Program-made: the position numbers and the translations under genes
Notes under the pieces: generated by a model
The model's database searches: none
Told to the model about the DNA's origin: nothing
What the model saw: the letters and a program-made list of their open reading frames with translations, nothing else
Origin: Nitrospinaceae bacterium
GTDB taxonomy: Bacteria; Nitrospinota; Nitrospinia; Nitrospinales; Nitrospinaceae
DNA: 64,000 nt
Assembly: GCA_965237905.1 (NCBI GenBank)
Contig: OZ250172.1
Location: forward strand, 2,461,805 to 2,525,804
Reading direction: 5' to 3'
Shown here: positions 1,594-58,275 of the stretch, piece by piece
Layout of the letters: each line of letters begins with the position of its first letter
Numbering within the stretch: the first letter of the stretch is position 1

Positions 1594-2157
1594 TTAGCCG
1601 ATGACTCCCGTACAGGTTTTGGACAGAACCGCGTGTCCGGAAATCTGCTGTTCCAGAGAACCCAGCATGTCCTTCGTGGAGGTATTCTGATCCTTCACGA
1701 TCGTGCTGAAGTTTTCCTGAGCTACGCTTCCGAAATCCCCGTAGGAATCCTGGGAACACCCGTACATGCTGGCCAGGTTGTCCAGGTTTTCACCTTGACC
1801 GGCGGCCATTTCCTTGACCAGGCTGTTGTAGTTGACACTGGCGAAGGTTTCGCGCTCCTGTTGCTTGCGGGTCAGTTTGTCCTTGCCGCAATTGGAGGTA
1901 CCGAAAGTGATTGCGGTAGAGTGGCTGGATCCGAAGGGATCCACCATTGCCGCCAAAAGCTGGGCACCATCTCTTTTTGTTCCAAAAATCAAAGATCCGG
2001 GACCACAGCCGGCATCGCCATAACCTGCCGGGTGGGCGATAGCCGTGCTGGAAAAAGCGACTAAAACGAAAAGAACCGCACTTCCAAGTAGATATTTTTT
2101 CATTGAGTATCTCCTCGTGATGTTCAATGTTGTTTTTATTTTATAGTGGTAATTCAT
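1594..2157 (-). CDS. Secreted small protein, 4 conserved Cys, DUF3015-like, paralog 1 (probable start MKKYLL at 2103)
   Basis: Signal peptide. Motifs AGYGDAGCGPGS, NCG, MYGCSQDS and GHAVLSKTCTGVIG are shared with the two neighbours. The family name is from memory. Confidence 0.8.
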   Translation of the reverse strand: MNYHYKIKTTLNITRRYSMKKYLLGSAVLFVLVAFSSTAIAHPAGYGDAGCGPGSLIFGTKRDGAQLLAAMVDPFGSSHSTAITFGTSNCGKDKLTRKQQERETFASVNYNSLVKEMAAGQGENLDNLASMYGCSQDSYGDFGSVAQENFSTIVKDQNTSTKDMLGSLEQQISGHAVLSKTCTGVIG

Positions 2158-2199
2158 AAAGGTAATAATGTTCAGAGTTCATGGAATGATTTCATTCCA

Positions 2200-2721
2200 C
2201 TAGCCGATCACACCGGTACATGATTTGGACAGAACCGCATGGCCCGCCATTTCGTTCTCGATAGAAATCAGCATCTGATCGGAAGTGGTGCTTTCGTTTT
2301 GAACGATGTGTTCGAAGTTTTCCTGAACCATGGAGCTGAATTCACCATAAGATTCCTGCGAACATCCATACATGCCGGCCAGAGTACTCAGGCTCTCACC
2401 TTCGCCTACAGCCATTTCCCGGACCAGACTGGAATAATTAGTTTGAGCGAACATCTCCCGCTCTTTTTCCAATTTAACCAGGCCTTGCGGATTACAATTG
2501 AGAGAACCGACCGTGATAGCAGTCAATTGGGTATACTTGAATGTAGAATTAGTCGTAACTCCGAGCAATTGCATGGCACCCGGTGAGGTACCCGCCACCA
2601 GGGAACCCAGTCCACAACCGGATCCACCATAGCCTGCGGCAAACGCGGCACTCGAAAAGGTAATGAAACTAACAAGAACAACACCCACCATTAGAAGTTT
2701 TTTCATTGACTGTCTCCTCAT
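2200..2721 (-). CDS. Secreted small protein, DUF3015-like, paralog 2 (probable start MKKLLM at 2706)
   Basis: About 55-60% identical to paralogs 1 and 3, with the same Cys pattern. The RBS gaggaga lies upstream. Confidence 0.8.
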   Translation of the reverse strand: MRRQSMKKLLMVGVVLVSFITFSSAAFAAGYGGSGCGLGSLVAGTSPGAMQLLGVTTNSTFKYTQLTAITVGSLNCNPQGLVKLEKEREMFAQTNYSSLVREMAVGEGESLSTLAGMYGCSQESYGEFSSMVQENFEHIVQNESTTSDQMLISIENEMAGHAVLSKSCTGVIG

Positions 2722-3039
2722 GTTGTTAAGGGTTAAGGGTGAGTTAATATTCCGGATAACCGAAGTTTCCGGAAAAGAATTGAATCGAGCGATTAATTAG
2801 GAAATCATAAAACTCCTTATCTTATAAGATATTAAAGGATATTTTAAAATTACACAACCCATAAATGTAACTCTTTATCAACCTAAATGTAACATTCGGA
2901 TAAATAGTCTGGAACTGGCCTACGGACCCAAAAAAAGGGATGACCTTACAAATAAAAGGATTGAAGCATCTGCCCGGAGTTGGCGATATTTGAAATCAGA
3001 GAGGAATTACCTTTTTAAGGTAGGTTGGCTGATATATGG

Positions 3040-3100
3040 GAGGGGAAATAGAAAAGGATATCAATGGTTCGCAAAAACACATTGATATCCTTTTATTTTA
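3040..3100. terminator. Bidirectional-looking terminator: stem GGATATCAATG / CATTGATATCC (3056-3066 / 3080-3090), T-runs on both sides
   Basis: The stem is identical to the terminator at 1536-1570 but the loop differs. It follows the stop of paralog 3 at 3120. Confidence 0.65.
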
Positions 3101-3119
3101 TACAACCCAGTCCTGTCGA

Positions 3120-3668
3120 TTAACCGGCGATACTGGAACAGGATTTGGACAATACTGCGTGGCCTGACATCTCGGATTTCAGGCTGGAAAGCATTTGCTG
3201 AGAGGTGGTGGAGTCGCTTTTGACGATATCACTGAAATTCGCCTGAACCAGAGAACCGAAATCAGCTTGGGAGCCCTGAGAACAACCGTAGAGACCTGCT
3301 AAAGTGTCCAGATTTTCCCCTTCGCCCATAGCCATTTCTTTCACGAGAGTGGAATAATTGTTCTTGGCGAATTCCTCCCGCTCCTTCTCCAGCTTCACCA
3401 GGCCTACGGGGTTACAATTGGAAGTCCCGGTAGTAATACCAAAGGTCTGGGTACCAAATAACCCGTTTGTGGTGGAGGCCAGAATCTGGAAACCTTGTCC
3501 TTGATCTTTTCCGAAAGCCAGGGACCCGAGACCGCAACCGGCATCGCCATACCCGGCGGCAAAGGCCGATCCGGAAAAAGAAACTAAAGAAAGAACCAGA
3601 GCACCTGTCATTATTAGCTTTTTCATTGGAGTTCTCCTTCTGTGGTTAACTAAAGGGGTGGTTAACAA
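3120..3668 (-). CDS. Secreted small protein, DUF3015-like, paralog 3 (probable start MKKLIM at 3626, RBS aaggaga)
   Basis: Same architecture and motifs as paralogs 1 and 2. Confidence 0.8.
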   Translation of the reverse strand: MLTTPLVNHRRRTPMKKLIMTGALVLSLVSFSGSAFAAGYGDAGCGLGSLAFGKDQGQGFQILASTTNGLFGTQTFGITTGTSNCNPVGLVKLEKEREEFAKNNYSTLVKEMAMGEGENLDTLAGLYGCSQGSQADFGSLVQANFSDIVKSDSTTSQQMLSSLKSEMSGHAVLSKSCSSIAG

Positions 3669-4132: not shown

Positions 4133-4717
4133 CTATTTTCTAATGAATTTGCTCTCGGTTCCGTCCATCAGCCGCTGAATGTTTTCACGGTGCCGGATGA
4201 CTGTGATGATCGCCGCCGCCGTTACAACGTAGATGGAGGGTTTCGGGGCCTGAAAATAAATCGCGAACCAGGGAATGCTGATTGCCGCCACGATGGAGCT
4301 GACCGAAACATACCGGGTGAAAGCGAGAGAAACCGCGAAAACCCCTATTGAGGACAACCCGGCCCACGGTGTTAAGTAAAGGAAAATTCCCAGGCCGGTG
4401 GCGACGCCTTTGCCTCCCTTGAATTTGAGAAAAATCGAGAAAACATGTCCCAGAAACGCCATCAATCCCGCCACCGCTACCCCCCATTGAGCTTCCAGCA
4501 GTTGCCCCGCGATCCACACTGCCAGGTAGCCTTTACCGCAATCCCCGAGTAGGGTTAAAATCCCGGCGGTTTTGCCGAGGGTCCGGGCAACGTTGGTTGC
4601 GCCGATGTTACCGCTGCCATGCTGGCGCAGGTCCACCCGCCTCAATTTGGCCAGCATCACGCCGAAAGGGATGGATCCCAAGAAGTAGGCCAACATGCAA
4701 ACGAGGGTGATTTTCAT
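4133..4717 (-). CDS. plsY: Glycerol-3-phosphate acyltransferase PlsY
   Basis: 194 aa polytopic membrane protein with the conserved PlsY motifs (GSGNIGATN, FKGGKGVAT). Confidence 0.9.
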   Translation of the reverse strand: MKITLVCMLAYFLGSIPFGVMLAKLRRVDLRQHGSGNIGATNVARTLGKTAGILTLLGDCGKGYLAVWIAGQLLEAQWGVAVAGLMAFLGHVFSIFLKFKGGKGVATGLGIFLYLTPWAGLSSIGVFAVSLAFTRYVSVSSIVAAISIPWFAIYFQAPKPSIYVVTAAAIITVIRHRENIQRLMDGTESKFIRK

Positions 4718-6627: not shown

Positions 6628-7407
6628 ATGAAAAAATCCCTGATTTTTTTAAAATCAATAGTATTGAGCCTGCCGCTGGTGATGGTTTGGGCCGATTTTG
6701 CCTGGGCCGCCAAGGAAAAAACGGTTGCCGGCTGGACCATCATCTCCGTCATCGACAAAGGCGGACCCATGATGTACCCCATCCTGTTCAGTTCCATCCT
6801 CATGATAGGCATCGCCATCGAACGCTTCTACACCCTGCGCAGAAAAAACATCATCAACCCCGATTTTCTGGAGAAGGTGCGGTCGCATTGGAACTGGAAG
6901 GATATCCATCTTGGCCTCCAGCTGTGTAAATCCTACGACAACTCTCTGTCGCGCATTTTGAAAGCGGGATTGTTGCGCTTCGGCGGCAAGGTGGACGAAG
7001 TCGAACGCGCCATCGAAGGTGCGGGCCAGCACGAGGCGTCGCTCCTCACCTCCAATTTGCGGGTGCTGGGCGCGGTGGCGAACATCACCCCCATGCTCGG
7101 CCTGCTCGGCACCGTGTTCGGCATGATCAAGGCGTTCAACGTCATCTCGCAAAGCGGGACCGGCAACCCCGGCCTCGTCGCCAGCGGCATCTCCGAAGCA
7201 TTGATCACCACCGCCGCGGGCCTCGTCGTCGGCATCCCCGCACTGGCGCTGTATCATTATTTCCGGGGACGCATCGAGCGGTTCGTGTTCGAGATGGAGG
7301 AAGTGTCCGTGCAGTTGGTGGAAGAGTTGAACTTCGAAAGCATGCGCAACCGCCGCGCCGAAAAGGGCAAAGACGCCGCCGCCAAAACCACCGCCCGCCC
7401 AGCGTGA
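6628..7407 (+). CDS. exbB: MotA/TolQ/ExbB proton-channel family protein (start MKKSLIF at 6628; the listed ORF begins upstream at 6445)
   Basis: Three TM helices plus the conserved ExbB/TolQ C-terminal region (GLLGTVFGMIKAF). The stop codon lies inside the palindrome CCAGCGTGACGCTGG. Confidence 0.8.
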   Translation: MKKSLIFLKSIVLSLPLVMVWADFAWAAKEKTVAGWTIISVIDKGGPMMYPILFSSILMIGIAIERFYTLRRKNIINPDFLEKVRSHWNWKDIHLGLQLCKSYDNSLSRILKAGLLRFGGKVDEVERAIEGAGQHEASLLTSNLRVLGAVANITPMLGLLGTVFGMIKAFNVISQSGTGNPGLVASGISEALITTAAGLVVGIPALALYHYFRGRIERFVFEMEEVSVQLVEELNFESMRNRRAEKGKDAAAKTTARPA

Positions 7408-7424: not shown

Positions 7425-7500
7425 CAGGGGCGTTATGGCGGGATTGATTCGTTACTTTCGCCAGCCGAGGTTTTAAAATTACCTGCGGCGGTTCGCCGCT
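7425..7500 (+). repeat. Copy A of the ~90-bp intergenic repeat family (core ACGGTTTTAAAATTACCTGCGG, terminal hairpin GCGGCG-GTT-CGCCGC)
   Basis: It aligns with the copies at 47436, 50075 and 58180. Confidence 0.75.
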
Positions 7501-23918: not shown

Positions 23919-24040
23919 ACGTTCCCCTCCTTTTTAAGGAGGGGCCGGGGGTGGTTTTCCTTCATCTGTTTCCTTATTTGCCCCAAGTTTTGCACCCGCC
24001 GATCTGCTACAATACGACTCGTTTTCGATCATAATATAAA

Positions 24041-25735
<1,695 letters not shown>

Positions 25736-25895
25736 GGTTAAATGGAGTGCCTTATTAATCACCAAACCTTCAATATAAATCATGCGTATCCCAAATTTCT
25801 TTTTGGGATAGATGTAGCCTATTAGGGATGTGTTTACGGACAAAACACGGATAATTTTGCGGATCAAAGGTGGGCACTCATAAATCGGCTTGGTT

Positions 25896-26855
25896 CTACA
25901 GTTTGTCTGTATACTCCTTTAATTTAGTCATGATTTCATCAAATCCAGGCTGGGTTTTATAGTAAAGAGCATTTGTATTTTGGAAGGCCTCCTCGTATTG
26001 TTTACGGGTGGTTGGGTCGTTTAAGAAAAAAGCTTCATTTTCTGCAATAAGAGGGTTATCGCTGGAACGGAAACGTTTCTTCTTATGAGCCTGATACTCG
26101 GCCGTTCCAATGAAATTCTGGACCTCTGGCTCATGAAGCAAGCAGTAAACATCATAGTAGTGACGCATGAAATTATCCGGAAATGATTCGTTTTCCTGCT
26201 GGGTACGGTATTTGGTGGAAATGGTTTGTAGCTTTTCCACTAGTGTATAGCCTGGATGATAGCAGGGGACTTCTTTAGCGCGGTTATCCACTACCTCCAC
26301 CTTGTCCGCTGCATAATCATAGGCCCATGAACTGATGTCTTTGGATATATTCGGTGCTATATCATCAAACCCTACTTCCAGCAAGATGCCATCCTTTAAG
26401 CCGGTCAAAGGGCCTGCCATGTTTTTGTAGTTCAAGCGGATTCCACCACTACGATATTTTTCATCGTCGTATTCTTTATCGCGCCAGACTTTTTCGATTC
26501 CGTCGATGGTAATGGTGTTCGCCAACCAGTCATAAAAATCTTCCCGACTTTTACAATGTGCAGTCTTATTCTGGTTACGACCAATCTTTACATTCATGCT
26601 TACAGGTGGTTGAATATGGATATCAATATCCTCTGAAAAGCGGTTGATGATTCCATATCCCTTGGAAAGGGAGGTGCCACCTTTAAGCTCAAAGGTTAGG
26701 CTCATCTGTTGTAATTCGTACAGGCAATGCATGATCCAGTAATCTTTCTCTATAAGAGCTGGATCAATGGAGTGTTCCTCACCGACAATGCGGATCAGAT
26801 CGGGGAAGTTTGTATGATTATGAAGGTAGTTATGCAGCATACTGCAATTTAGCAT
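25896..26855 (-). CDS. AbiEii/AbiGii-family nucleotidyltransferase toxin (DUF1814), type IV TA / abortive infection
   Basis: KGGTSLSKGYGIINRFSEDIDI is the AbiEii nucleotidyltransferase motif. It overlaps the upstream AbiEi gene by about 10-25 nt. Confidence 0.75.
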   Translation of the reverse strand: MLNCSMLHNYLHNHTNFPDLIRIVGEEHSIDPALIEKDYWIMHCLYELQQMSLTFELKGGTSLSKGYGIINRFSEDIDIHIQPPVSMNVKIGRNQNKTAHCKSREDFYDWLANTITIDGIEKVWRDKEYDDEKYRSGGIRLNYKNMAGPLTGLKDGILLEVGFDDIAPNISKDISSWAYDYAADKVEVVDNRAKEVPCYHPGYTLVEKLQTISTKYRTQQENESFPDNFMRHYYDVYCLLHEPEVQNFIGTAEYQAHKKKRFRSSDNPLIAENEAFFLNDPTTRKQYEEAFQNTNALYYKTQPGFDEIMTKLKEYTDKL

Positions 26856-27426
26856 CCCCCAGCGCTTCGGCAAAGAATTTCCTTGCTCGTACCCCACCAT
26901 ACTGACGTACTGCCCTTAAGAGTGCTTGTCTGTTAGCGGATGTAGCCTTTTCCTTTACTCGCTCCATCACCTTAGCCTGATTTTCTGCTAACTGTTCCAG
27001 ATTATTCACGAGATCAACTAAAAGGAATTCATGGCTGAGCGATTTCGGGAAATGAGGTTTTACTCGGAAGTCAAATACGCGCCCGCCTAGCTTAAAGCGT
27101 CCATGCCGTTTGTTATTATAAACAACGGTTTCATTGTAAAGTTGCGTTGTCCCGACACTCAGCGTGTTATAGGCATTGGCTGAGGTCAGAAGAAACCGGT
27201 TGTCTTTCAAAAAAGCCTCGACTAGTTTTTCATCTTCTGCCGGGGCCTCACCAAAGGCGGTTTTCTTCGGGCAGTAATAGAGCCCGCCGGAAAGCTTAGT
27301 CAGCGTTCCATCTTCTTGCAACTGCCGTAAATGACGGTCCACGGCATTCGACCAATCCGAAAGTTCGGCTCGCCGGTACACCCGTCCGGGGCGTAGATGT
27401 TTTTTAACTTCGTTCAATTTTGACAT
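26830..27426 (-). CDS. AbiEi-family antitoxin / transcriptional regulator
   Basis: 198 aa. It lies immediately upstream of the AbiEii gene and overlaps it, and the N-terminal region is AbiEi_4-like. Confidence 0.6.
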   Translation of the reverse strand: MSKLNEVKKHLRPGRVYRRAELSDWSNAVDRHLRQLQEDGTLTKLSGGLYYCPKKTAFGEAPAEDEKLVEAFLKDNRFLLTSANAYNTLSVGTTQLYNETVVYNNKRHGRFKLGGRVFDFRVKPHFPKSLSHEFLLVDLVNNLEQLAENQAKVMERVKEKATSANRQALLRAVRQYGGVRARKFFAEALGDAKLQYAA

Positions 27427-27669
27427 GGCTGTTTACCTCGCTTTCTAATATAGCCAAAAACTAGAGAAATAGCAAGTATTTTTATTTAAAAATCATGCAA
27501 ATTATTCAAAAGATACAAATATTTCAATAAATTAGAGATATTTAATTAGTTATAAATATTCCCTTTGAAAAGTAACCTAGCTTTAATATTAGAATTTGGG
27601 ACAAAAACCATGGATGTTTAAGAAGGTATTTATGTGCAGGAAATTGTATTTGTAAGGCAAGAAGAGGGT

Positions 27670-27781
27670 GGGGTTGACAGCCGGATGGGCTACTTCATCG
27701 CCGACCAAAAGGACAGCAAGCCCGGCTCCCCCATCTTCAACTGCACCACCCCTCTCTGCGACATCTGGGCCAAGGTTCAAA
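27670..27781 (+). pseudogene. Displaced 3'-terminal fragment of glnS (last ~35 codons, about 80% nucleotide identity to 25624-25735)
   Basis: Direct alignment within this window. Confidence 0.8.
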
Positions 27782-27862
27782 AGGAGGGATAAGAATTTTT
27801 TTCGTAAAGAAGAAAAGAGAAGGAAGAAAAGGGGGAGATCACAATGGTCTCCCCCTAACTTT

Positions 27863-28141
27863 TTAAGAATAAGCGTATTGGGTGTGTTGTCTTAACCATT
27901 CCCAAGCTTTTTCCGGAAGCCACCCATCAAACTCGTTGGTAACACCGATAACTAAAAAGTGATCGTTATCATCCGTGGTTTTTCTGAGGTGGTCGCGAAT
28001 CTGAGTAGCATTAAGATCAGCTTTTACTAACCATGTTGAATCAAGGTAATGCCACCAGATTCCCAGTTCTTTAATGGCCTCATAAAGGTCATCATAGTTT
28101 TGACCGGGTTTGTTAAGGTCGTACGAAATTAGATAAACCAT
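27863..28141 (-). CDS. Small Cas2/VapD-fold-like protein (92 aa, tentative)
   Basis: YLISYDL...NYDDLYEAIKELG..WHYLDSTWLV resembles the N-terminus of VapD/Cas2 endoribonucleases; this is from memory. Low-GC gene. Confidence 0.35.
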   Translation of the reverse strand: MVYLISYDLNKPGQNYDDLYEAIKELGIWWHYLDSTWLVKADLNATQIRDHLRKTTDDNDHFLVIGVTNEFDGWLPEKAWEWLRQHTQYAYS

Positions 28142-28174
28142 TTTATTATGCTCCTAAGAGGGAGTTCAAGTTTT

Positions 28175-28242
28175 CCCTCTTGACAAAGGAGCCTAGCCCA
28201 GGTAAATTCCGGGTGCGAAAAAGGATCTCTTTTGTCAAGAGG
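28175..28242. promoter_or_regulatory. 12-bp inverted repeat CCTCTTGACAAA ... TTTGTCAAGAGG (about 40 bp apart) in the promoter region of the 92-aa gene
   Basis: Perfect inverted repeat seen in the sequence. Candidate operator. Confidence 0.4.
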
Positions 28243-28450
28243 TTCCAAGTATTTGAAGGATCATGCCTTGCGGCGTGGTCCTTCTTTTTTGCCTAAAACA
28301 CACATCACAATATGATGGATTATCCCGGATTATGACTACCAGCCGTTGTGGTGTCAATGCTTAAATTTATTGGATCTTAAGCCTTTTAATTTCAAATATT
28401 TATGCTTGTTGGTCCGGAGGGTAAGTTGTAACATTTTGGTTTTGTGTAGT

Positions 28451-28597
28451 TTATAGGGAGTTTTTGAGGCGTTCGATAGTTCGTTGTTTCCCCAGCAGTA
28501 GCACGACATCAAATATGCCGGGGGAGGCGGTTTTGCCGGTGAGGGCGACGCGGACGGGCTGGGCGAGTTTGCCGAGCTTCAATCCGGCTTCCTCGCC
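28451..28597 (-). pseudogene. Displaced 3'-terminal fragment of gltX (about 90% identical to 28880-29010; encodes ...[16 protein letters not shown])
   Basis: Direct alignment with the intact gltX 3' end, which encodes ...LLLGKQKTVERLGSAVHIIGTSKK*. Confidence 0.75.
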
Positions 28598-28648
28598 TCT
28601 CCTTGGTAATGGGAGGGAAATTTAGCTCCGGCGCTACGCCGGTCCAGC
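28586..28648 (+). repeat. Composite three-hairpin element (CCTCTCC..GGGAGGG; CCGGCG-cta-CGCCGG; GTCCAGCGTCACGCTGG), left copy
   Basis: The same arrangement in the same orientation occurs at 30345-30409 on the other side of gltX. Confidence 0.75.
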
Positions 28649-28845
28649 GTCACGCTGGTCGGTGGCTCACTGTTCTTCCGGTTTGGGTGGGTCTCTTCTT
28701 TCTTCGGCTTTCGGTTTTTTCTGGTCGCCAATAACGGTTTTGAGCGGACAGGCCTTGAATATCGGACACTTTTCACAGCCGACGGCCAAAGCAACAGGAC
28801 ACAGGGTCATGGGTCTCACCTCCTCTTCTTGATAGGGGTAGGGGC

Positions 28846-30270
28846 TTATTTTTTTGAGGTGCCTATAATATGGACCGCCGACCCTAACCTTTCCACTGTT
28901 TTTTGCTTCCCCAGCAGTAACACGACGTCAAATATACCGGGAGAGGCGGTTTTGCCGGTGAGGGCGACGCGCACGGGTTGGGCGAGTTTTCCGAGTTTCA
29001 ATCCGGCTTCCTCGACGGTCTGCTTGAACAGGGCTTCGACGGCGTCGTGGTCCAACGGTTCCTCCATGGTTTCCAATCCTGCCACCAGTTTGTCGAGCAG
29101 GGGCTTCACTTCCGGCGTTAAAAATTTCGCTTTCGCCTTCTCGTCAAACGTCACTTCATCCTTCAAATAAAACTCGGCACCGTGGGCCATCTCGATCAGC
29201 GTTTTGGCGCGTTGCTGGAGCGACGGGATGACTTTCACGAGATCGTCTTTCGATTTACCGTGCGCTTCCGGCAGGATATCTTCCTGAATCAAAGCCGCTT
29301 CGAAGGCATCGACCAGTTCTTCCGGCGTCGATTTCTGAATCCACTGCTCGTTAACCCATAACAATTTCTCCGGATTGAACACCGCGGCGGAGATGGTGAC
29401 GTGCTCCAGTGAGAAATGCTTGATCATTTCCTGCTGTGTGAACAGTTCCTGATCGCCATGCGACCAGCCGAGGCGCGCCAGAAAATTGATCAATGCGTCG
29501 GGCAGAAAACCCATGTCGCGGTAGGCGAGGGTGGCCGTCGCGCCGTGGCGTTTCGACAACCGGGTTTTGTCGGCGCCGAGGATCATGCTGAGATGCGCGA
29601 ACTGCGGGCGCGGGAAATTGAGGGCGTCGTACATCAGCGCCTGGCGCGGCGTGTTGGACAGATGGTCGTCGCCCCGGATGACGTGGCTGATACGCATATC
29701 GGCGTCGTCCACCACCACCACGAAGTTATAGGTCGGCGTGCCGTCGGTGCGCAGGATGATGAAATCGTCGAGCTCTGCCACGTCGAATTCCACGTTGCCG
29801 CGCAGGAGGTCTGCAACCACCACGTTGCCCGTCGGCGGACATTGGAAGCGCACGACGTGCGGCGCATCCGGTTGGTCCTTACGGCCGCGGCAGGTGCCGT
29901 CGTATTTCGGTTTTTCCTTTTTGGCCTGGGCGGCTTTACGTTTGGCTTCCAGATTTTCCGGCGAGCAGTAACAGCGGTAGGCTTTGCCCTCGTTCAGCAA
30001 CTGGTCGACTTTAGTTTTATAGAGACTTTGCCGCTCCATCTGGCGGAACGGCCCCTCGTCCCAGTCGAGCCCCAGCCACTGCATCGACTCGATGATTTCC
30101 TGAATGGAGTCCTCGGTGGAGCGTTCGTGGTCGGTGTCCTCGATCCGCAAAATAAACTTGCCTTTATGGTGGCGCGCGAACAGCCAGTTGAACAGGGCGG
30201 TGCGCACCCCGCCGATATGCAGGAATCCGGTAGGGCTGGGGGCGAAACGGACGCGTACTTCTTCAGTCAT
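28846..30270 (-). CDS. gltX: Glutamate--tRNA ligase
   Basis: PSPTGFLHIGGVRTALFNW (HIGH), KMSKS-region equivalents, 474 aa. Confidence 0.95.
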   Translation of the reverse strand: MTEEVRVRFAPSPTGFLHIGGVRTALFNWLFARHHKGKFILRIEDTDHERSTEDSIQEIIESMQWLGLDWDEGPFRQMERQSLYKTKVDQLLNEGKAYRCYCSPENLEAKRKAAQAKKEKPKYDGTCRGRKDQPDAPHVVRFQCPPTGNVVVADLLRGNVEFDVAELDDFIILRTDGTPTYNFVVVVDDADMRISHVIRGDDHLSNTPRQALMYDALNFPRPQFAHLSMILGADKTRLSKRHGATATLAYRDMGFLPDALINFLARLGWSHGDQELFTQQEMIKHFSLEHVTISAAVFNPEKLLWVNEQWIQKSTPEELVDAFEAALIQEDILPEAHGKSKDDLVKVIPSLQQRAKTLIEMAHGAEFYLKDEVTFDEKAKAKFLTPEVKPLLDKLVAGLETMEEPLDHDAVEALFKQTVEEAGLKLGKLAQPVRVALTGKTASPGIFDVVLLLGKQKTVERLGSAVHIIGTSKK

Positions 30271-30344
30271 TCATGCTCCTCTATAGGTGGAAACTTTTAG
30301 ACTTGATTTATTTAGATGATATCGCTGGCACCAAATCCCCCCAG

Positions 30345-30409
30345 CCCCCTTCCTGAAGGGGGAGCATATTACCTCCGGGCGTTGCCCGGTTGGGTCCAGC
30401 GTCACGCTG
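30345..30409 (+). repeat. Composite three-hairpin element (CCCCCTTCC..GAAGGGGGAG; CCGGGC-gtt-GCCCGG; GGGTCCAGCGTCACGCTGG), right copy
   Basis: Direct repeat of 28586-28648. Confidence 0.75.
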
Positions 30410-30686
30410 GCAGTCGCCTAGATTAGCAGAATCGAGGGATGAAATTAAGCGCGAAATCTTTTCCGTCCCATAGGGCTAAAGTTCCTTTGTTATCGATAGC
30501 TTGGGTAGAACCCGAGCGATTCCGCCGCGACCCGAGTTACTCTTTTAAAGTGAATGCCGGGGGGCTTGAAATTGGGTTACGCCCGATTTTGAAAATTTTT
30601 ATCTTTGAAAAATAAGGCCTTTCCTTCACAATGTTTAAATATCCGACAATTCAATCTTTTTCATCCGCCTCATGTAAGGATAAGCC

Positions 30687-31271
30687 ATGGAAACCTGGTG
30701 GGCCGAATTAACGACGACGTTAAGAGTATTCTGGGGACTCGCGATCTTTTCGACCGTGTTTTTTGTTTTGCAGACGATTATGACCTTCGCTGGTCTTTCG
30801 GATATGGATTCGGATATGGATTCGGACATGGATTCGGACAGCGATGCCGGGGGTCACGATGCGCACTCGATGATGGACTATTTTACGGTGCGGAATCTGG
30901 TGTCCTTTTTCCTGGGTTTTTCCTGGTGCGGCATCGTACTGATCGAAGGCGGCTCATCCCTGGGGGTCGCCATCGCCGGCGGAACAGTGATGGGGCTGGT
31001 GTTGGTCAGCATCACGATGCTGATCCTCAAGACTCTGTCTTCTCTGAAAAGCCAGGGGAACTTGTCGCTGGACAACGCGATCGGCCATGAGGGTCTCGTG
31101 ACTATCACCATCCCTGCCGACCAAAAACATTACGGTAAGATAGGAATCTCCTTTCAGAACCGGTACCGGGAACTGGAGGGGATTTCCAAGGAGCAACAGG
31201 AATTGGCCAAGGGGACGCGGGTGAAAGTGGTGGCTATTTCCGGTAATCAACTTGTGGTGAAATCCGTTTAG
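30687..31271 (+). CDS. NfeD-like membrane protein (short form, OB-fold C-terminus) with an acidic DMDSDMDSDMDSDSD tandem repeat
   Basis: Membrane helices plus a C-terminal beta-barrel-like region. It is cotranscribed with the flotillin gene. The repeat is encoded by 12-bp tandem repeats at 30802-30849. Confidence 0.6.
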   Translation: METWWAELTTTLRVFWGLAIFSTVFFVLQTIMTFAGLSDMDSDMDSDMDSDSDAGGHDAHSMMDYFTVRNLVSFFLGFSWCGIVLIEGGSSLGVAIAGGTVMGLVLVSITMLILKTLSSLKSQGNLSLDNAIGHEGLVTITIPADQKHYGKIGISFQNRYRELEGISKEQQELAKGTRVKVVAISGNQLVVKSV

Positions 31272-31300
31272 CGTGCGCTAAACTCCTGGAGAAATAAAAA

Positions 31301-32701
31301 ATGATTCCTAATGCAATCGTTCTGATCGTCATCGCGGCCGGGTCCATTTTCCTGACCCTGATAGCGGCCATGGCTCGTTACAAGCGTTGCCCATCGGACA
31401 AAATCATGGTGGTCTACGGTAAAGTGGGGAAAGGCAAGACCTCGCAGTGTATTCATGGCGGGGCGGCGTTCATTTGGCCGTTGATTCAGGATTACCGGTT
31501 TCTGGACTTGCAACCGATGACCATCGACATCAATCTCGAGAACGCACTTTCCAAACAGAACATTCGCGTCAGCATTCCGTCGCGCTTTACCATCGGTATA
31601 TCGACCGAGCCGGATATTATGACCGTCGCGGCGGAACGCCTGTTGAGCATGGAGCGCAGGGAAATTGAAATCAACGCCAATGAAATTATCTTCGGTCAGT
31701 TGCGCGCCACTATCGCCACCATGGTGATTGAAGAGATCAACGCGAATCGCGACGTGTTCGAACAGAAGATCATGGACAATGTCGAAGGCGAATTGAAAAA
31801 GATCGGGTTAAAACTCATCAACGTCAATATCAAGGATATCACCGACGAGTCCGGCTACATCGTGGCCTTGGGTAGAAAAGCCGCCGCTGAAGCGCTGAAT
31901 AAAGCCAAAGTCGAAGTGGCGGAACAAGACCGGACCGGCGCCACCGGGGAAGCCAACGCGAAGCAGGAAGAGCGCGTCAATGTTGCCAGCGCCGACGCCA
32001 AGGCGGTCGATGGTGAAAATACCGCGCTTATCACTGTGGCCAACTCCGATGCCAACCGGCGAGAGGCGGAAGCCGAAGCACGGCGCAAAGGGGATGCGGC
32101 TACGTTGATCAAAAAAGCGGCCGCCGACCAGGCAGGATATGACGCCAATAAAATGGCTGAGGACGCCCGTGCGAATATGAACCGCTCCACCCAGACGGCG
32201 GATATCGTCGTTCCCGCTCAAATCGAAAAGGAAAAAGTGGTGATCGATGCGGAAGCCGAACGAGAGCAGACCGTACTGGCAGGTAGGGGTAGAGGTGAGG
32301 CCATCCAGGTCACTCTGGAAGGGGAGGCTAACGGGATCAAGGCCATTCTGGAGCGAAAGGCTGAAGGATTTGAACGCATCGTTAGCGCCGCCGGGGGTGA
32401 CCCGGATAAGGCCGCGGTGTTGATGATTGTCGAACAATTACCGAAGATCGCCGAATTGCAGGCCCAGGCCATCTCCAAGATCCGTTTTGATAAGATCGTG
32501 GTCATGGATGGCGGAGGCAGTGGCAATGGCGGCGGAACCACCACTACCAACTGGCTGTCCAATATCACCAAGGCATTGCCAGGACTGCACGAATTTGCCA
32601 ACATGGCTGGGATCAAACTGCCTGGGGCGTTGGGAGAACAGCTTAAAGACCCGGTCAGTCCTCCAAAACCTCCAGAAGGCGGCAAGCCGGGCGAAGCCTA
32701 A
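31301..32701 (+). CDS. Flotillin-like SPFH/band-7 protein (YqiK/FloA-like)
   Basis: N-terminal TM, an SPFH domain, then a long Ala/Glu-rich coiled-coil. Confidence 0.8.
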   Translation: MIPNAIVLIVIAAGSIFLTLIAAMARYKRCPSDKIMVVYGKVGKGKTSQCIHGGAAFIWPLIQDYRFLDLQPMTIDINLENALSKQNIRVSIPSRFTIGISTEPDIMTVAAERLLSMERREIEINANEIIFGQLRATIATMVIEEINANRDVFEQKIMDNVEGELKKIGLKLINVNIKDITDESGYIVALGRKAAAEALNKAKVEVAEQDRTGATGEANAKQEERVNVASADAKAVDGENTALITVANSDANRREAEAEARRKGDAATLIKKAAADQAGYDANKMAEDARANMNRSTQTADIVVPAQIEKEKVVIDAEAEREQTVLAGRGRGEAIQVTLEGEANGIKAILERKAEGFERIVSAAGGDPDKAAVLMIVEQLPKIAELQAQAISKIRFDKIVVMDGGGSGNGGGTTTTNWLSNITKALPGLHEFANMAGIKLPGALGEQLKDPVSPPKPPEGGKPGEA

Positions 32702-33025
32702 TAGTTTTCGTACAGACGGCACAGTAAAAATCGATTTTTCTGTTTCTAATGAAGCGGAGAAATCGATTTTTTTTACCCCATCGAGGGAGGCGGACTGTCC
32801 CGATGACCTGTTTCCTGACAAAAATTCGTTGGAAATGACAAAAAATGGTATGGGGGCGCCGGAATCCTGCCAGCCAAGGAGAGTTTATTTTTTCCTATCA
32901 TATTGAATACTTAAGACTAAGTTGAATGTGCTTTTTTGGGTATTGATGGCATCAGTCTTGCTTGTTACTATAACAGTAAAGGTGTAGGTAGTGTCCTGAT
33001 GAACCTTTAATATGAAGAGTTCGAA

Positions 33026-47023: not shown

Positions 47024-47446
47024 ATGGGTTATAAAAATCCGATTCCGGCGGTCGATCTCATTATTGAAATTGAGGGTAAAGGTCTGGTGCTGATTGAGCG
47101 GCTCAACCCGCCTCCGGGTTGGGCGTTGCCGGGCGGATTCGTGGAGGTTGGCGAATCCCTGGAGCAGGCGGCTGTCCGCGAAGCCAAAGAGGAGACCTGT
47201 CTGGATGTGGAACTGCTGGGGCAGTTTCATACCTATTCCGACCCCAATCGGGACCCCCGCATGCATTGCATTTCAACCGTTTTTGTAGCCAGGGCGACAG
47301 GAACGCCGAAGGCGGAGGATGATGCCAAATCCGTCGCCCTGTATCCCAAAGACCAGCTTCCGGATATCCTGGCATTTGACCACCGGAAAATTCTGGAGGA
47401 CTATCTGAACTCCCCCTGGCTCCTGCCCGGAGGGGGAAAGGGCTGA
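47024..47446 (+). CDS. NUDIX hydrolase
   Basis: Nudix box [24 protein letters not shown]. The last 8 codons and the stop lie inside the repeat ...CCTGCCCGGAGGGGGAAAGGGCTGACCGG. Confidence 0.85.
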
Positions 47447-47520
47447 CCGGAAACGGCCAGAGAGAATCCTTGGAGCGCAATTTACGGTTTTAAAATTACC
47501 CGTGGCGGTTCGCTACCCAG
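47436..47520 (+). repeat. Copy B of the ~90-bp repeat family (GGCTGACCGGAAACGGC ... ACGGTTTTAAAATTACCCGTGGCGGTTCGCTAC)
   Basis: It aligns with copies A, C and D. Its terminal hairpin GTGGCG/CGCTAC has one mismatch. Confidence 0.75.
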
Positions 47521-50060: not shown

Positions 50061-50160
50061 CCTCCTCCCCGGAGGGGGAATTGGCTGACCGGTAACGGCA
50101 ACCGTGAATTACTGAGCGCAACTCACGGTTTTAAAATTACCTGCGGAGGTACTCCGCCGT
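50061..50160 (+). repeat. Copy C of the ~90-bp repeat family, preceded by the palindrome CCTCCTCCCCGGAGGGGGAA (GGCTGACCGGTAACGGCAACCGTGAATTACTGAGCGCAACTCACGGTTTTAAAATTACCTGCGGAGGTACTCCGCC)
   Basis: Internal hairpins AACCGTGA/TCACGGTT and GCGGAG/CTCCGC. Confidence 0.8.
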
Positions 50161-58167: not shown

Positions 58168-58275
58168 CCGCCCTCTAGCGAGGGAGGCAAATGGCTGACG
58201 GTTAACGGCAAGCGTTGACTATAGGGTGCAGTTCAAGGGTTTTAAAGTTACCAGCGGAGGCACTCCGCTTTTTTC
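58168..58275 (+). repeat. Copy D of the ~90-bp repeat family, preceded by the palindrome CCCTCTAGCGAGGGAGG; its terminal hairpin AGCGGAG-gca-CTCCGCT plus T6 forms a plus-strand terminator
   Basis: GGCTGACGGTTAACGGCAAGCG ... GGGTTTTAAAGTTACCAGCGGAGGCACTCCGCTTTTTT. Confidence 0.8.

Follow-up and report, generated by a model that had tools for sequence, protein, structure and literature searches.

The 64-kb stretch of Nitrospinaceae DNA studied here (contig OZ250172.1; the whole stretch is hereafter the window) carries a glutamyl-tRNA synthetase (GluRS) gene, gltX, whose 3' end is present twice, once in the live gene and once as a displaced remnant just beyond it. ORFs (open reading frames) were called, a repeat search was run, and Pfam, NCBIfam, PADLOC and Rfam were applied to the window. 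In Nitrospinaceae, gltX and the glutaminyl-tRNA synthetase (GlnRS) gene glnS are convergent neighbours, and it is the interval between their 3' ends that concerns us. About 20 Nitrospinaceae loci, labelled L001 etc., served for comparison, and types A and B below are the two allelic forms of the gltX 3' end found among them. On the gltX side the window holds the following:

28846-30270, minus strand: live gltX, encoding a GluRS of 474 amino acids (aa) (ORF; Pfam tRNA-synt_1c and Anticodon_2; sliding identity and dot alignment)
28891-29014, minus strand: repeat copy within the live gltX 3' end (124-nucleotide (nt) direct repeat)
28451-28595, minus strand: displaced A-type gltX 3' remnant, 145 nt, reading frame intact (ORF; identity to L023; colinearity with L002)
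28595-28596, no strand: novel joint of a hairpin cluster to about codon E427 of gltX (CGAGGAAGCC...), where homology stops
28846-28915, minus strand: B-type gltX tail (...KQKTVERLGSAVHIIGTSKK and stop), near-identical to L003, L018 and L059
28667-28810, minus strand: four-cysteine protein gene, 47 aa from the ATG at 28810, its ORF reaching a GTG at 28819 (homologues; conserved linkage to B-type gltX)
28596-28660, no strand: downstream three-hairpin cluster, belonging to the B-type segment and resembling REP (repetitive extragenic palindromic) sequences and BIMEs (bacterial interspersed mosaic elements) (fold; family dispersed)
30345-30410, no strand: upstream REP/BIME-like hairpin cluster (hairpins at 30345-30362 and 30375-30389, palindrome at 30396-30410)
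28200-28450, minus strand: non-coding DNA that follows A-type gltX in L002 (82% to L002 9257-9575; alignment)

The product of live gltX has a class-I catalytic domain and a GluRS anticodon-binding domain (Pfam). Its 3' end and the remnant share a 124-nt ungapped direct repeat (28891-29014 and 28472-28595), 89% identical, the copies lying 419 nt apart; the remnant begins 250 nt past the live stop and is in frame up to its own stop at 28451. Between the live stop and the remnant lie the 47-aa four-cysteine gene (hereafter the Cys gene) and three GC hairpins. An initial annotation, made from the sequence alone, had described a displaced gltX copy of about 90% identity some 250 bp past the stop, with a palindrome, hairpins and a cysteine-motif frame in between, and these observations hold. 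The DNA following the live copy is unrelated to that following the remnant copy (repeat search). The longest identical run between the two copies is 29 nt (CGCGTCGCCCTCACCGGCAAAACCGCCTC); it is invariant in nearly all gltX alleles, so it speaks neither for nor against a shared core. Beyond -70 nt the two tails differ by about 50%, like alleles A and B of separate genomes.

The nearest GltX relatives came from Nitrospinaceae and Nitrospina metagenome-assembled genomes (MAGs; 78-89% aa identity) and from metagenome contigs; additional loci were found through homologues of the Cys protein, and L022 was excluded from the comparison for having no glnS beside gltX. The type A gltX end occurs in L001, L002, L005, L019, L023, L027, L054, L055, L060 and L061. 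The type B end, ...KQKTVERLGSAVHII(G/S)T... before the stop (core KTVERLGSAVHII) with the Cys gene directly after it, is that of L003 and L018. In L021, a more distant locus, gltX, the Cys gene and glnS follow one another compactly in this order, and the gltX tail (...KEKTVGRLKNALPSPWA and stop) fits neither type cleanly. In the window the live gltX is type B, its end and the Cys gene being colinear with L003 and L018 (the C-terminal extension is identical to that of L003 at 37 of 37 nt), and the remnant is type A, matching the live type-A end of L023 at 96.3% identity across 109 nt. The remnant together with the next ~250 nt (to ~28200) is colinear with uninterrupted L002 (82% over 322 nt). 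L002 is the empty site, and L003 and L018 are the pure B form without a remnant; the window is colinear with both alleles, showing that a B module (tail, Cys gene and hairpins) was set before a truncated A module.

The switch between the two lineages can be placed inside the live gene. The 3' half of gltX is nearest to L060, L023 and L017 (93-97% in 60-nt sliding segments), whereas its last ~70-100 nt are 89-94% identical to L003/L018 and only 36-77% to those three A-lineage loci, so that live gltX is a chimera of an A-lineage body and a B-type end. The A-to-B switch is located within the 124-nt repeat. Over the upstream DNA, gltX and glnS, respectively, the window is 81, 85 and 85% identical to L001, 83, 85 and 88% to L002, and 88, 88 and 85% to L060; the similarity of gltX to each relative is on par with that of its flanks, and thus gltX as a whole was not imported. 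In these alignments 28595|28596 is the sole non-homologous junction of the gltX event.

Remnants of gltX recur among the relatives, in both orders. The reverse order, namely a live A end, cargo, a B remnant and the Cys gene, was found in three loci. In L054 the live A end is followed by a DUF559 endonuclease gene, hairpins, a 68-nt B remnant (100% to L018) and the Cys gene. In L060 the cargo is a VWA gene, a histidine kinase gene and a response regulator gene, and in L061 an ODP gene, in both cases followed by the B remnant, the Cys gene and glnS. L059 lacks gltX in the 6.4 kb upstream of a 126-nt B remnant, which is followed by the Cys gene and glnS. In L027 the live A end is followed by a carboxymuconolactone-decarboxylase-like gene (judged from translation), a hairpin-interrupted, decayed A remnant, and then the DNA that in L005 follows live gltX. 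L055 carries three near-tandem copies of the gltX tail plus hairpin, and L005 a 38-nt glnS end fused back-to-back with a 69-nt gltX fragment through a GTCG overlap (microhomology); the joint of L054 has a GCTGG-like overlap. The displaced fragments keep the same orientation, and each is followed by its own former neighbours: L002-type DNA in the window, the Cys gene in L054, L060 and L061, and L005-type DNA in L027. On the left, eight remnants break off at about -158, -150, -148, -126, -82, -69, -68 and -64 nt from the stop, where their flanks are mutually unrelated, and comparison of these eight boundaries gave no recurrent identical crossover position. The locus is highly polymorphic among the relatives; the uniformity that would have weakened the recent-mobility interpretation of the initial annotation is not seen.

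The glnS end of the interval shows a similar structure:

24041-25735, plus strand: live glnS, 564 aa, convergent with gltX (Pfam)
27682-27793, plus strand: displaced glnS 3' remnant (112-nt repeat of 25625-25736, 79% identical; translation)
25896-27426, minus strand: AbiEii toxin gene (25896-26900) and AbiEi antitoxin gene (26830-27426) (PF08843, 2.4e-27; PADLOC AbiEii, 6e-73, and AbiEi, 1.9e-89)
27863-28141, minus strand: 92-aa accessory gene of the older A-type module, between the two remnants (ORF; homologue distribution)

The two AbiE genes are the cargo of a 2-kb insert on the glnS side, between the live glnS end and the glnS remnant. They overlap at 26830-26900, a nucleotidyltransferase gene adjacent to a regulator gene as in AbiE type IV toxin-antitoxin systems. 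AbiEii homologues 66-78% identical occur in Nitrospira, Alphaproteobacteria and others (the nearest outside its own genome at 78%), indicating that the AbiE module has been widely transferred. Cargo 3' of gltX in the relatives comprises Vsr, a GHKL ATPase and Dcm (L001), two unknown genes (L002), an unknown gene, HNH and another unknown gene (L005), DUF559 (L054 and L055), the VWA, histidine kinase and response regulator genes (L023 and L060), and ODP (L019, L022 and L061). A search of the window inserts and of ~12 related inserts, including those of L001, L002, L005, L054, L060 and L061, gave no integrase or transposase domain; the rest of the genome was not searched. Judged by gene content, the glnS-gltX interval, with a core gene on either side, is a flexible hotspot that is partly of the defence type.

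The gltX remnant is probably the scar of a recombinase-independent displacement of the gene's 3' end within this flexible hotspot. DNA from a related lineage would have entered with its own type-B gltX 3' end and downstream neighbour (the Cys gene and hairpin cluster); one side would have been resolved by homologous recombination within conserved gltX sequence, and the other joined without homology at 28595|28596, so that gltX would remain intact but end in a new tail, while its previous type-A tail became an orphan beyond the incoming module. At glnS an AbiE module would have come in by the same process, and repeated events would stack modules, each preceded by a gene-end fragment. Linear DNA may have entered through homology-facilitated illegitimate recombination, or a circle that had looped out between such repeats, for example in the donor, through a single crossover; the circle would fit a crossover within the repeat at least as well as the linear route. 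As for polarity, we suppose that an A-type genome received a B segment via gltX; alternatively, an A-type block (28595-25737) could have entered a B-type genome via glnS, its short gltX end being joined illegitimately. Both polarities leave one and the same novel joint, and the informative sites within the repeat are too few to favour either. What the sequences show directly is that there are two allele types, an empty site and loci in the reverse arrangement, that live gltX is chimeric, that the remnant boundaries vary and that the inserts lack integrases.

Several observations weigh against recombinase-independent displacement, or against parts of it. No microhomology is evident at the window joint. 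Classic homology-facilitated illegitimate recombination of linear DNA matches the A-to-B switch inside the repeat less well than a single crossover with a circle does. Most of the comparison loci are metagenome contigs or MAGs, in which strain mixtures can be mis-joined. None of the eight remnant boundaries lies farther than ~160 nt from the gltX stop, and three are within 10 nt of one another (-148 to -158), a clustering that counts against the proposal because random illegitimate joins do not predict it. It might have arisen because those remnants share ancestry, or through a local hotspot or selection. Possibly remnants are shorter than ~160 nt because ends with longer homology resolve cleanly without a scar, because some share ancestry, or because selection retains a B tail that serves the Cys gene.

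Site-specific integration into an attB at the gltX 3' end would leave much the same picture: a CIME-like element (CIME, cis-mobilizable element) or decayed island, its tyrosine or serine recombinase lost or acting in trans, would bring a replacement gene end, and the repeats would be attL and attR. Direct repeats do flank the insert, the insert-borne end restores gltX, the lineage switch lies inside the repeat, glnS bears the same signature, and three boundaries fall at -148 to -158 and two at -68/-69. Yet no recombinase gene was found in the window inserts or the ~12 related ones, and the eight boundaries are scattered over 43-158 nt before the stop, with unrelated left flanks. The repeats are long and diverged gene ends (89%), their 29-nt run being the most conserved coding stretch; the supposed cargo is the native gltX neighbour in other lineages; and a scan for the conserved gltX core gave no viral contig with a gltX end, only one 20-nt chance match in an unrelated ORF. 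We consider such integration unlikely, and leave it some weight because a trans-acting enzyme and boundary clusters are possible. The initial annotation had offered, as one of two readings, a small element inserted at the gltX 3' end as at glnS. Its insertion half stands in outline, in that an insertion displaced the old end (witness the colinearity with L002 and with L003/L018, and the AbiE insert at glnS); its element half does not, the cargo being an ordinary neighbour, no recombinase being present and the boundaries varying. A bolder possibility, which we think rather improbable, is a dedicated cassette-capture system, using a trans-acting recombinase or a REP-associated transposase, at the convergent 3' ends of the two aminoacyl-tRNA synthetase genes. 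The case for it could be made from the confinement of the boundaries to the final 160 nt of gltX, where three lie no more than 10 nt apart, from the glnS scar and from the hairpin clusters at many joints. If it existed, this system would stack defence and accessory modules and rebuild the gene end, in integron-like fashion, with an essential gene as landing pad.

The other reading of the initial annotation was that the whole of gltX had been replaced as a repeat-bounded cassette, its borders being the hairpin clusters at 28596-28660 and 30345-30410. An identical 18-nt palindromic sequence does stand in the same orientation on both sides of gltX plus the Cys gene, and the DNA upstream of gltX is variable too (the NfeD/flotillin region, 30687-32701, is absent from L001, L002, L005 and others). 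The annotation had taken the upstream cluster for a second copy of the composite repeat, and this is true only of the 18-nt GGTCCAGCGTCACGCTGG (28641-28658 and 30393-30410), which is all that is identical between the clusters; the other two hairpins of each are same-family analogues that differ in sequence, and the palindrome is found away from gltX as well. The window has 5 sites of it, where chance would give 0.13 matches, and Nitrospinaceae loci have 19 copies in 164 kb against none in 449 kb of other loci. In 8 of 18 loci from relatives the palindrome precedes the gltX ATG by 69-169 nt, the upstream cluster being in place there, and in L003, L018, L059 and L061 it stands 3' of the Cys gene, the downstream cluster accompanying that gene in relatives. 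Since the family is dispersed and its positions are conserved in relatives, the clusters are lineage-specific, mosaic, REP/BIME-like extragenic repeats, inherited in place, and not the borders of a gltX cassette. Replacement of the cassette also leaves the remnant unexplained and sits badly with gltX being as similar to relatives as its flanks are; we regard it as very improbable and abandon it. A comparably poor prospect is an assembly artefact in which two strain alleles of the gltX end were concatenated. Both alleles do occur in nature and many comparison loci come from metagenomes, but the window proteins are on record on one 3.09-Mb contig, pointing to a finished genome; the remnant runs on into 250 nt matching A-type DNA and into further genes; glnS has an independent analogous structure; and differently built remnants are present in at least seven independent assemblies. 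Poorest of all is the idea that the gltX 3' end was duplicated locally in tandem, after which the copies diverged and the Cys gene was inserted. The two same-orientation copies 419 nt apart, and the three near-tandem copies of tail plus hairpin in L055, might suggest it, but in the window it is contradicted by the mutually unrelated sequences after the two copies, by their colinearity with different natural alleles (L003/L018 and L002), and by tails as different beyond -70 nt as alleles A and B, at about 50%.

Integrative islands and CIMEs insert in the 3' ends of tRNA or protein genes and bring a replacement end, as do ICESt1 and its related CIME at fda and the islands at tRNA genes. As with these elements, direct repeats of the target 3' end flank the insert here, and it is the incoming copy that keeps the gene intact. 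Unlike them, the inserts here have no recombinase, their boundaries vary between genomes and their repeats are long and ~11% diverged; the incoming segment is the neighbouring chromosomal allele of relatives, without element modules of its own. Flexible genomic islets and defence hotspots between core genes are known from pan-genome studies, and the glnS-gltX interval resembles them in being a single core-gene interval whose accessory or defence genes change from genome to genome (AbiE, Vsr/Dcm/GHKL, HNH, DUF559). Hotspot turnover through double homologous crossover is normally scar-free, whereas the gene-end fragments here record one-sided events.

In rhs, contact-dependent inhibition (CDI) and type VI secretion system (T6SS) effector-immunity arrays, C-terminal or sequential displacement has been attributed to homology-facilitated illegitimate recombination (Kirchberger et al. 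2017, PMC5361080, where Jackson et al. 2009 is cited on such displacement). In those systems as here, the 5' part of the gene does not change, and a new 3' end is acquired together with the genes linked downstream of it; older 3' fragments, with their partner genes, end up farther downstream as same-orientation orphans, and arrays grow by repeated events without an integrase. The differences are that the displaced ends here belong to essential housekeeping genes (for GluRS and GlnRS), that the new end is functionally equivalent and not a new toxin tip, and that the cargo is unrelated to the gene, with two convergent anchor genes serving one interval. In these terms the gltX structure adds one more case of a known process, with an anchor-gene pair that is unusual. 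Its orphaned ends of two essential synthetase genes keep the order and polarity of several acquisitions, including the AbiE module, in a lineage of globally important marine nitrite-oxidisers that are genetically hard to study. Natural records of how accessory genes enter core-flanked hotspots are rare because clean double crossovers erase the evidence; gene-end fragments offer a simple marker for one-sided recombination and module stacking in metagenomes. They also call for caution in annotation: such repeats should not be called att sites, nor such hairpins cassette borders.

The Cys ORF is a real gene, since its product has 102 database homologues (~45-50 aa, E-values 1e-8 to 1e-20); no meaningful Pfam, NCBIfam or PADLOC family matched it. 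Its start is most likely the ATG at 28810, with GGAGGTGA upstream. The gene adjoins gltX or a B-type remnant in L003, L018, L021, L054, L059, L060, L061 and L062. The B-type tail ACAGTGGAAAGGTTAGGGTCGGCGGTCCATATTATA persists nearly unaltered as a non-coding remnant in L054 (981-1048), L059 (6468-6590), L060 (~6709-6790) and L061 (4121-4189), and this retention of a tail that no longer codes suggests a double role, in which the tail may also serve as promoter or leader of the Cys gene. The only sigma-70-like match found in it, TGGAAA-19-TATTAT, is weak. In the distant, GC-rich L062 (3202-7144), the Cys gene is linked to gltX with three genes between them (Zn-ribbon, Fur and AstE/AspA-like), dnaE and not glnS comes next, and no gltX remnant was detectable. 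Paralogues of the Cys protein of the P0026 type lie in unrelated contexts and proved uninformative.

The older A module, between the two remnants, combines the 92-aa gene with non-coding DNA. The 92-aa protein has 73 homologues beyond its own copy, patchily distributed across phyla (Micavibrio, Gordonia, Sphingobacterium, Clostridium and metagenomes), some of them named 'SinR family' and one tagged with the Cas2 family Pfam PF09827. Its N-terminus (MVYLISYDL...) looks Cas2-like, and the window protein itself gave nothing meaningful in Pfam, NCBIfam or PADLOC. The non-coding stretch 28142-28450 is kept relative to L002 although the next genes differ. It includes a minus-strand near-consensus promoter-like site (TTGACA-17-CATAAT, 28357-28329, from a scan) and, on the plus strand, a promoter-like site at 28180-28208 and a terminator-like hairpin with T-run at 28255-28284; an inverted repeat (28176-28191 and 28227-28242) places TTGACA on both strands. 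An antisense RNA of ~75 nt opposite the leader of the 92-aa gene could be predicted from these signals, and Rfam had no match in 28142-28450.

The downstream cluster consists of hairpins at 28596-28617 and 28628-28642 and the perfect palindrome CCAGCGTCACGCTGG at 28644-28658, in agreement with the predicted fold. A terminator scan called none of these three hairpins an intrinsic terminator, because no T-run follows them. Rfam (gathering thresholds over the whole window, and E-values up to 1 over 27400-30800) returned only two tRNAs and two sub-threshold chance matches, so no known RNA accounts for the hairpins or for the conserved non-coding stretch. Proteobacterial REP sequences and BIMEs are short, GC-rich, imperfect extragenic palindromes, dispersed, lineage-specific and arranged in mosaic clusters. 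The hairpins here are likewise short and GC-rich, extragenic, dispersed and lineage-restricted, in mosaic clusters that vary by site and genome, and differ from the proteobacterial ones in their sequence families. The window has 23 GC hairpins, ~8 of them of a CCCCTCCTT-loop-AAGGAGGGG family, and the upstream cluster of L018 contains both variants of the middle hairpin (hairpin 2).

Some further repeats of this kind were observed. Among the relatives, ACCCAA...GTCAYYCTGAGC...CGAAGG... often comes after the palindrome, making a longer unit with its own hairpin that resembles a miniature inverted-repeat transposable element (L003 ~4590-4680, L004 ~1085-1140, L018 ~6960-7000, L053, L058 and L061 ~4425-4470); both window palindromes adjoining gltX are without this extension. 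The hairpin CCCCTCCTT...AAGGAGGGG with its flanks at window 23922-23956 is matched at 91-94% by short stretches directly beyond gltX in L018, L054 and L061, and again by a stretch in L022, showing that hairpin units are common to distant sites. A GGTTTTAAAATTACCYGYGGCGGT repeat family occupies window positions 7456-7492, 47473-47509 and 50114-50150 and is also found upstream of gltX in L017, L019 and L024, and a CTCCTSCCCGGAGGGGGAA...GGCTGACCGG.AACGGC family occupies 47420-47467, 50062-50109 and 58172-58219. Hairpins are repeated at 1524-1575 and 3044-3095, along with three tandem paralogous genes on the minus strand (1594-3668; ~173-187 aa, 64-78% nt identity between copies).

The region upstream of gltX (30411-32886) forms a second presence/absence polymorphism adjoining the gene. 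Its NfeD-like gene (30687-31271) and SPFH/flotillin gene (31301-32701) are absent from L001, L002, L005, L018, L060 and L061 and present in L024 and L053, and a conserved motif, cttaatttca...gattctgctaatctaggcgac (30411-30462), lies at the edge of the polymorphism.

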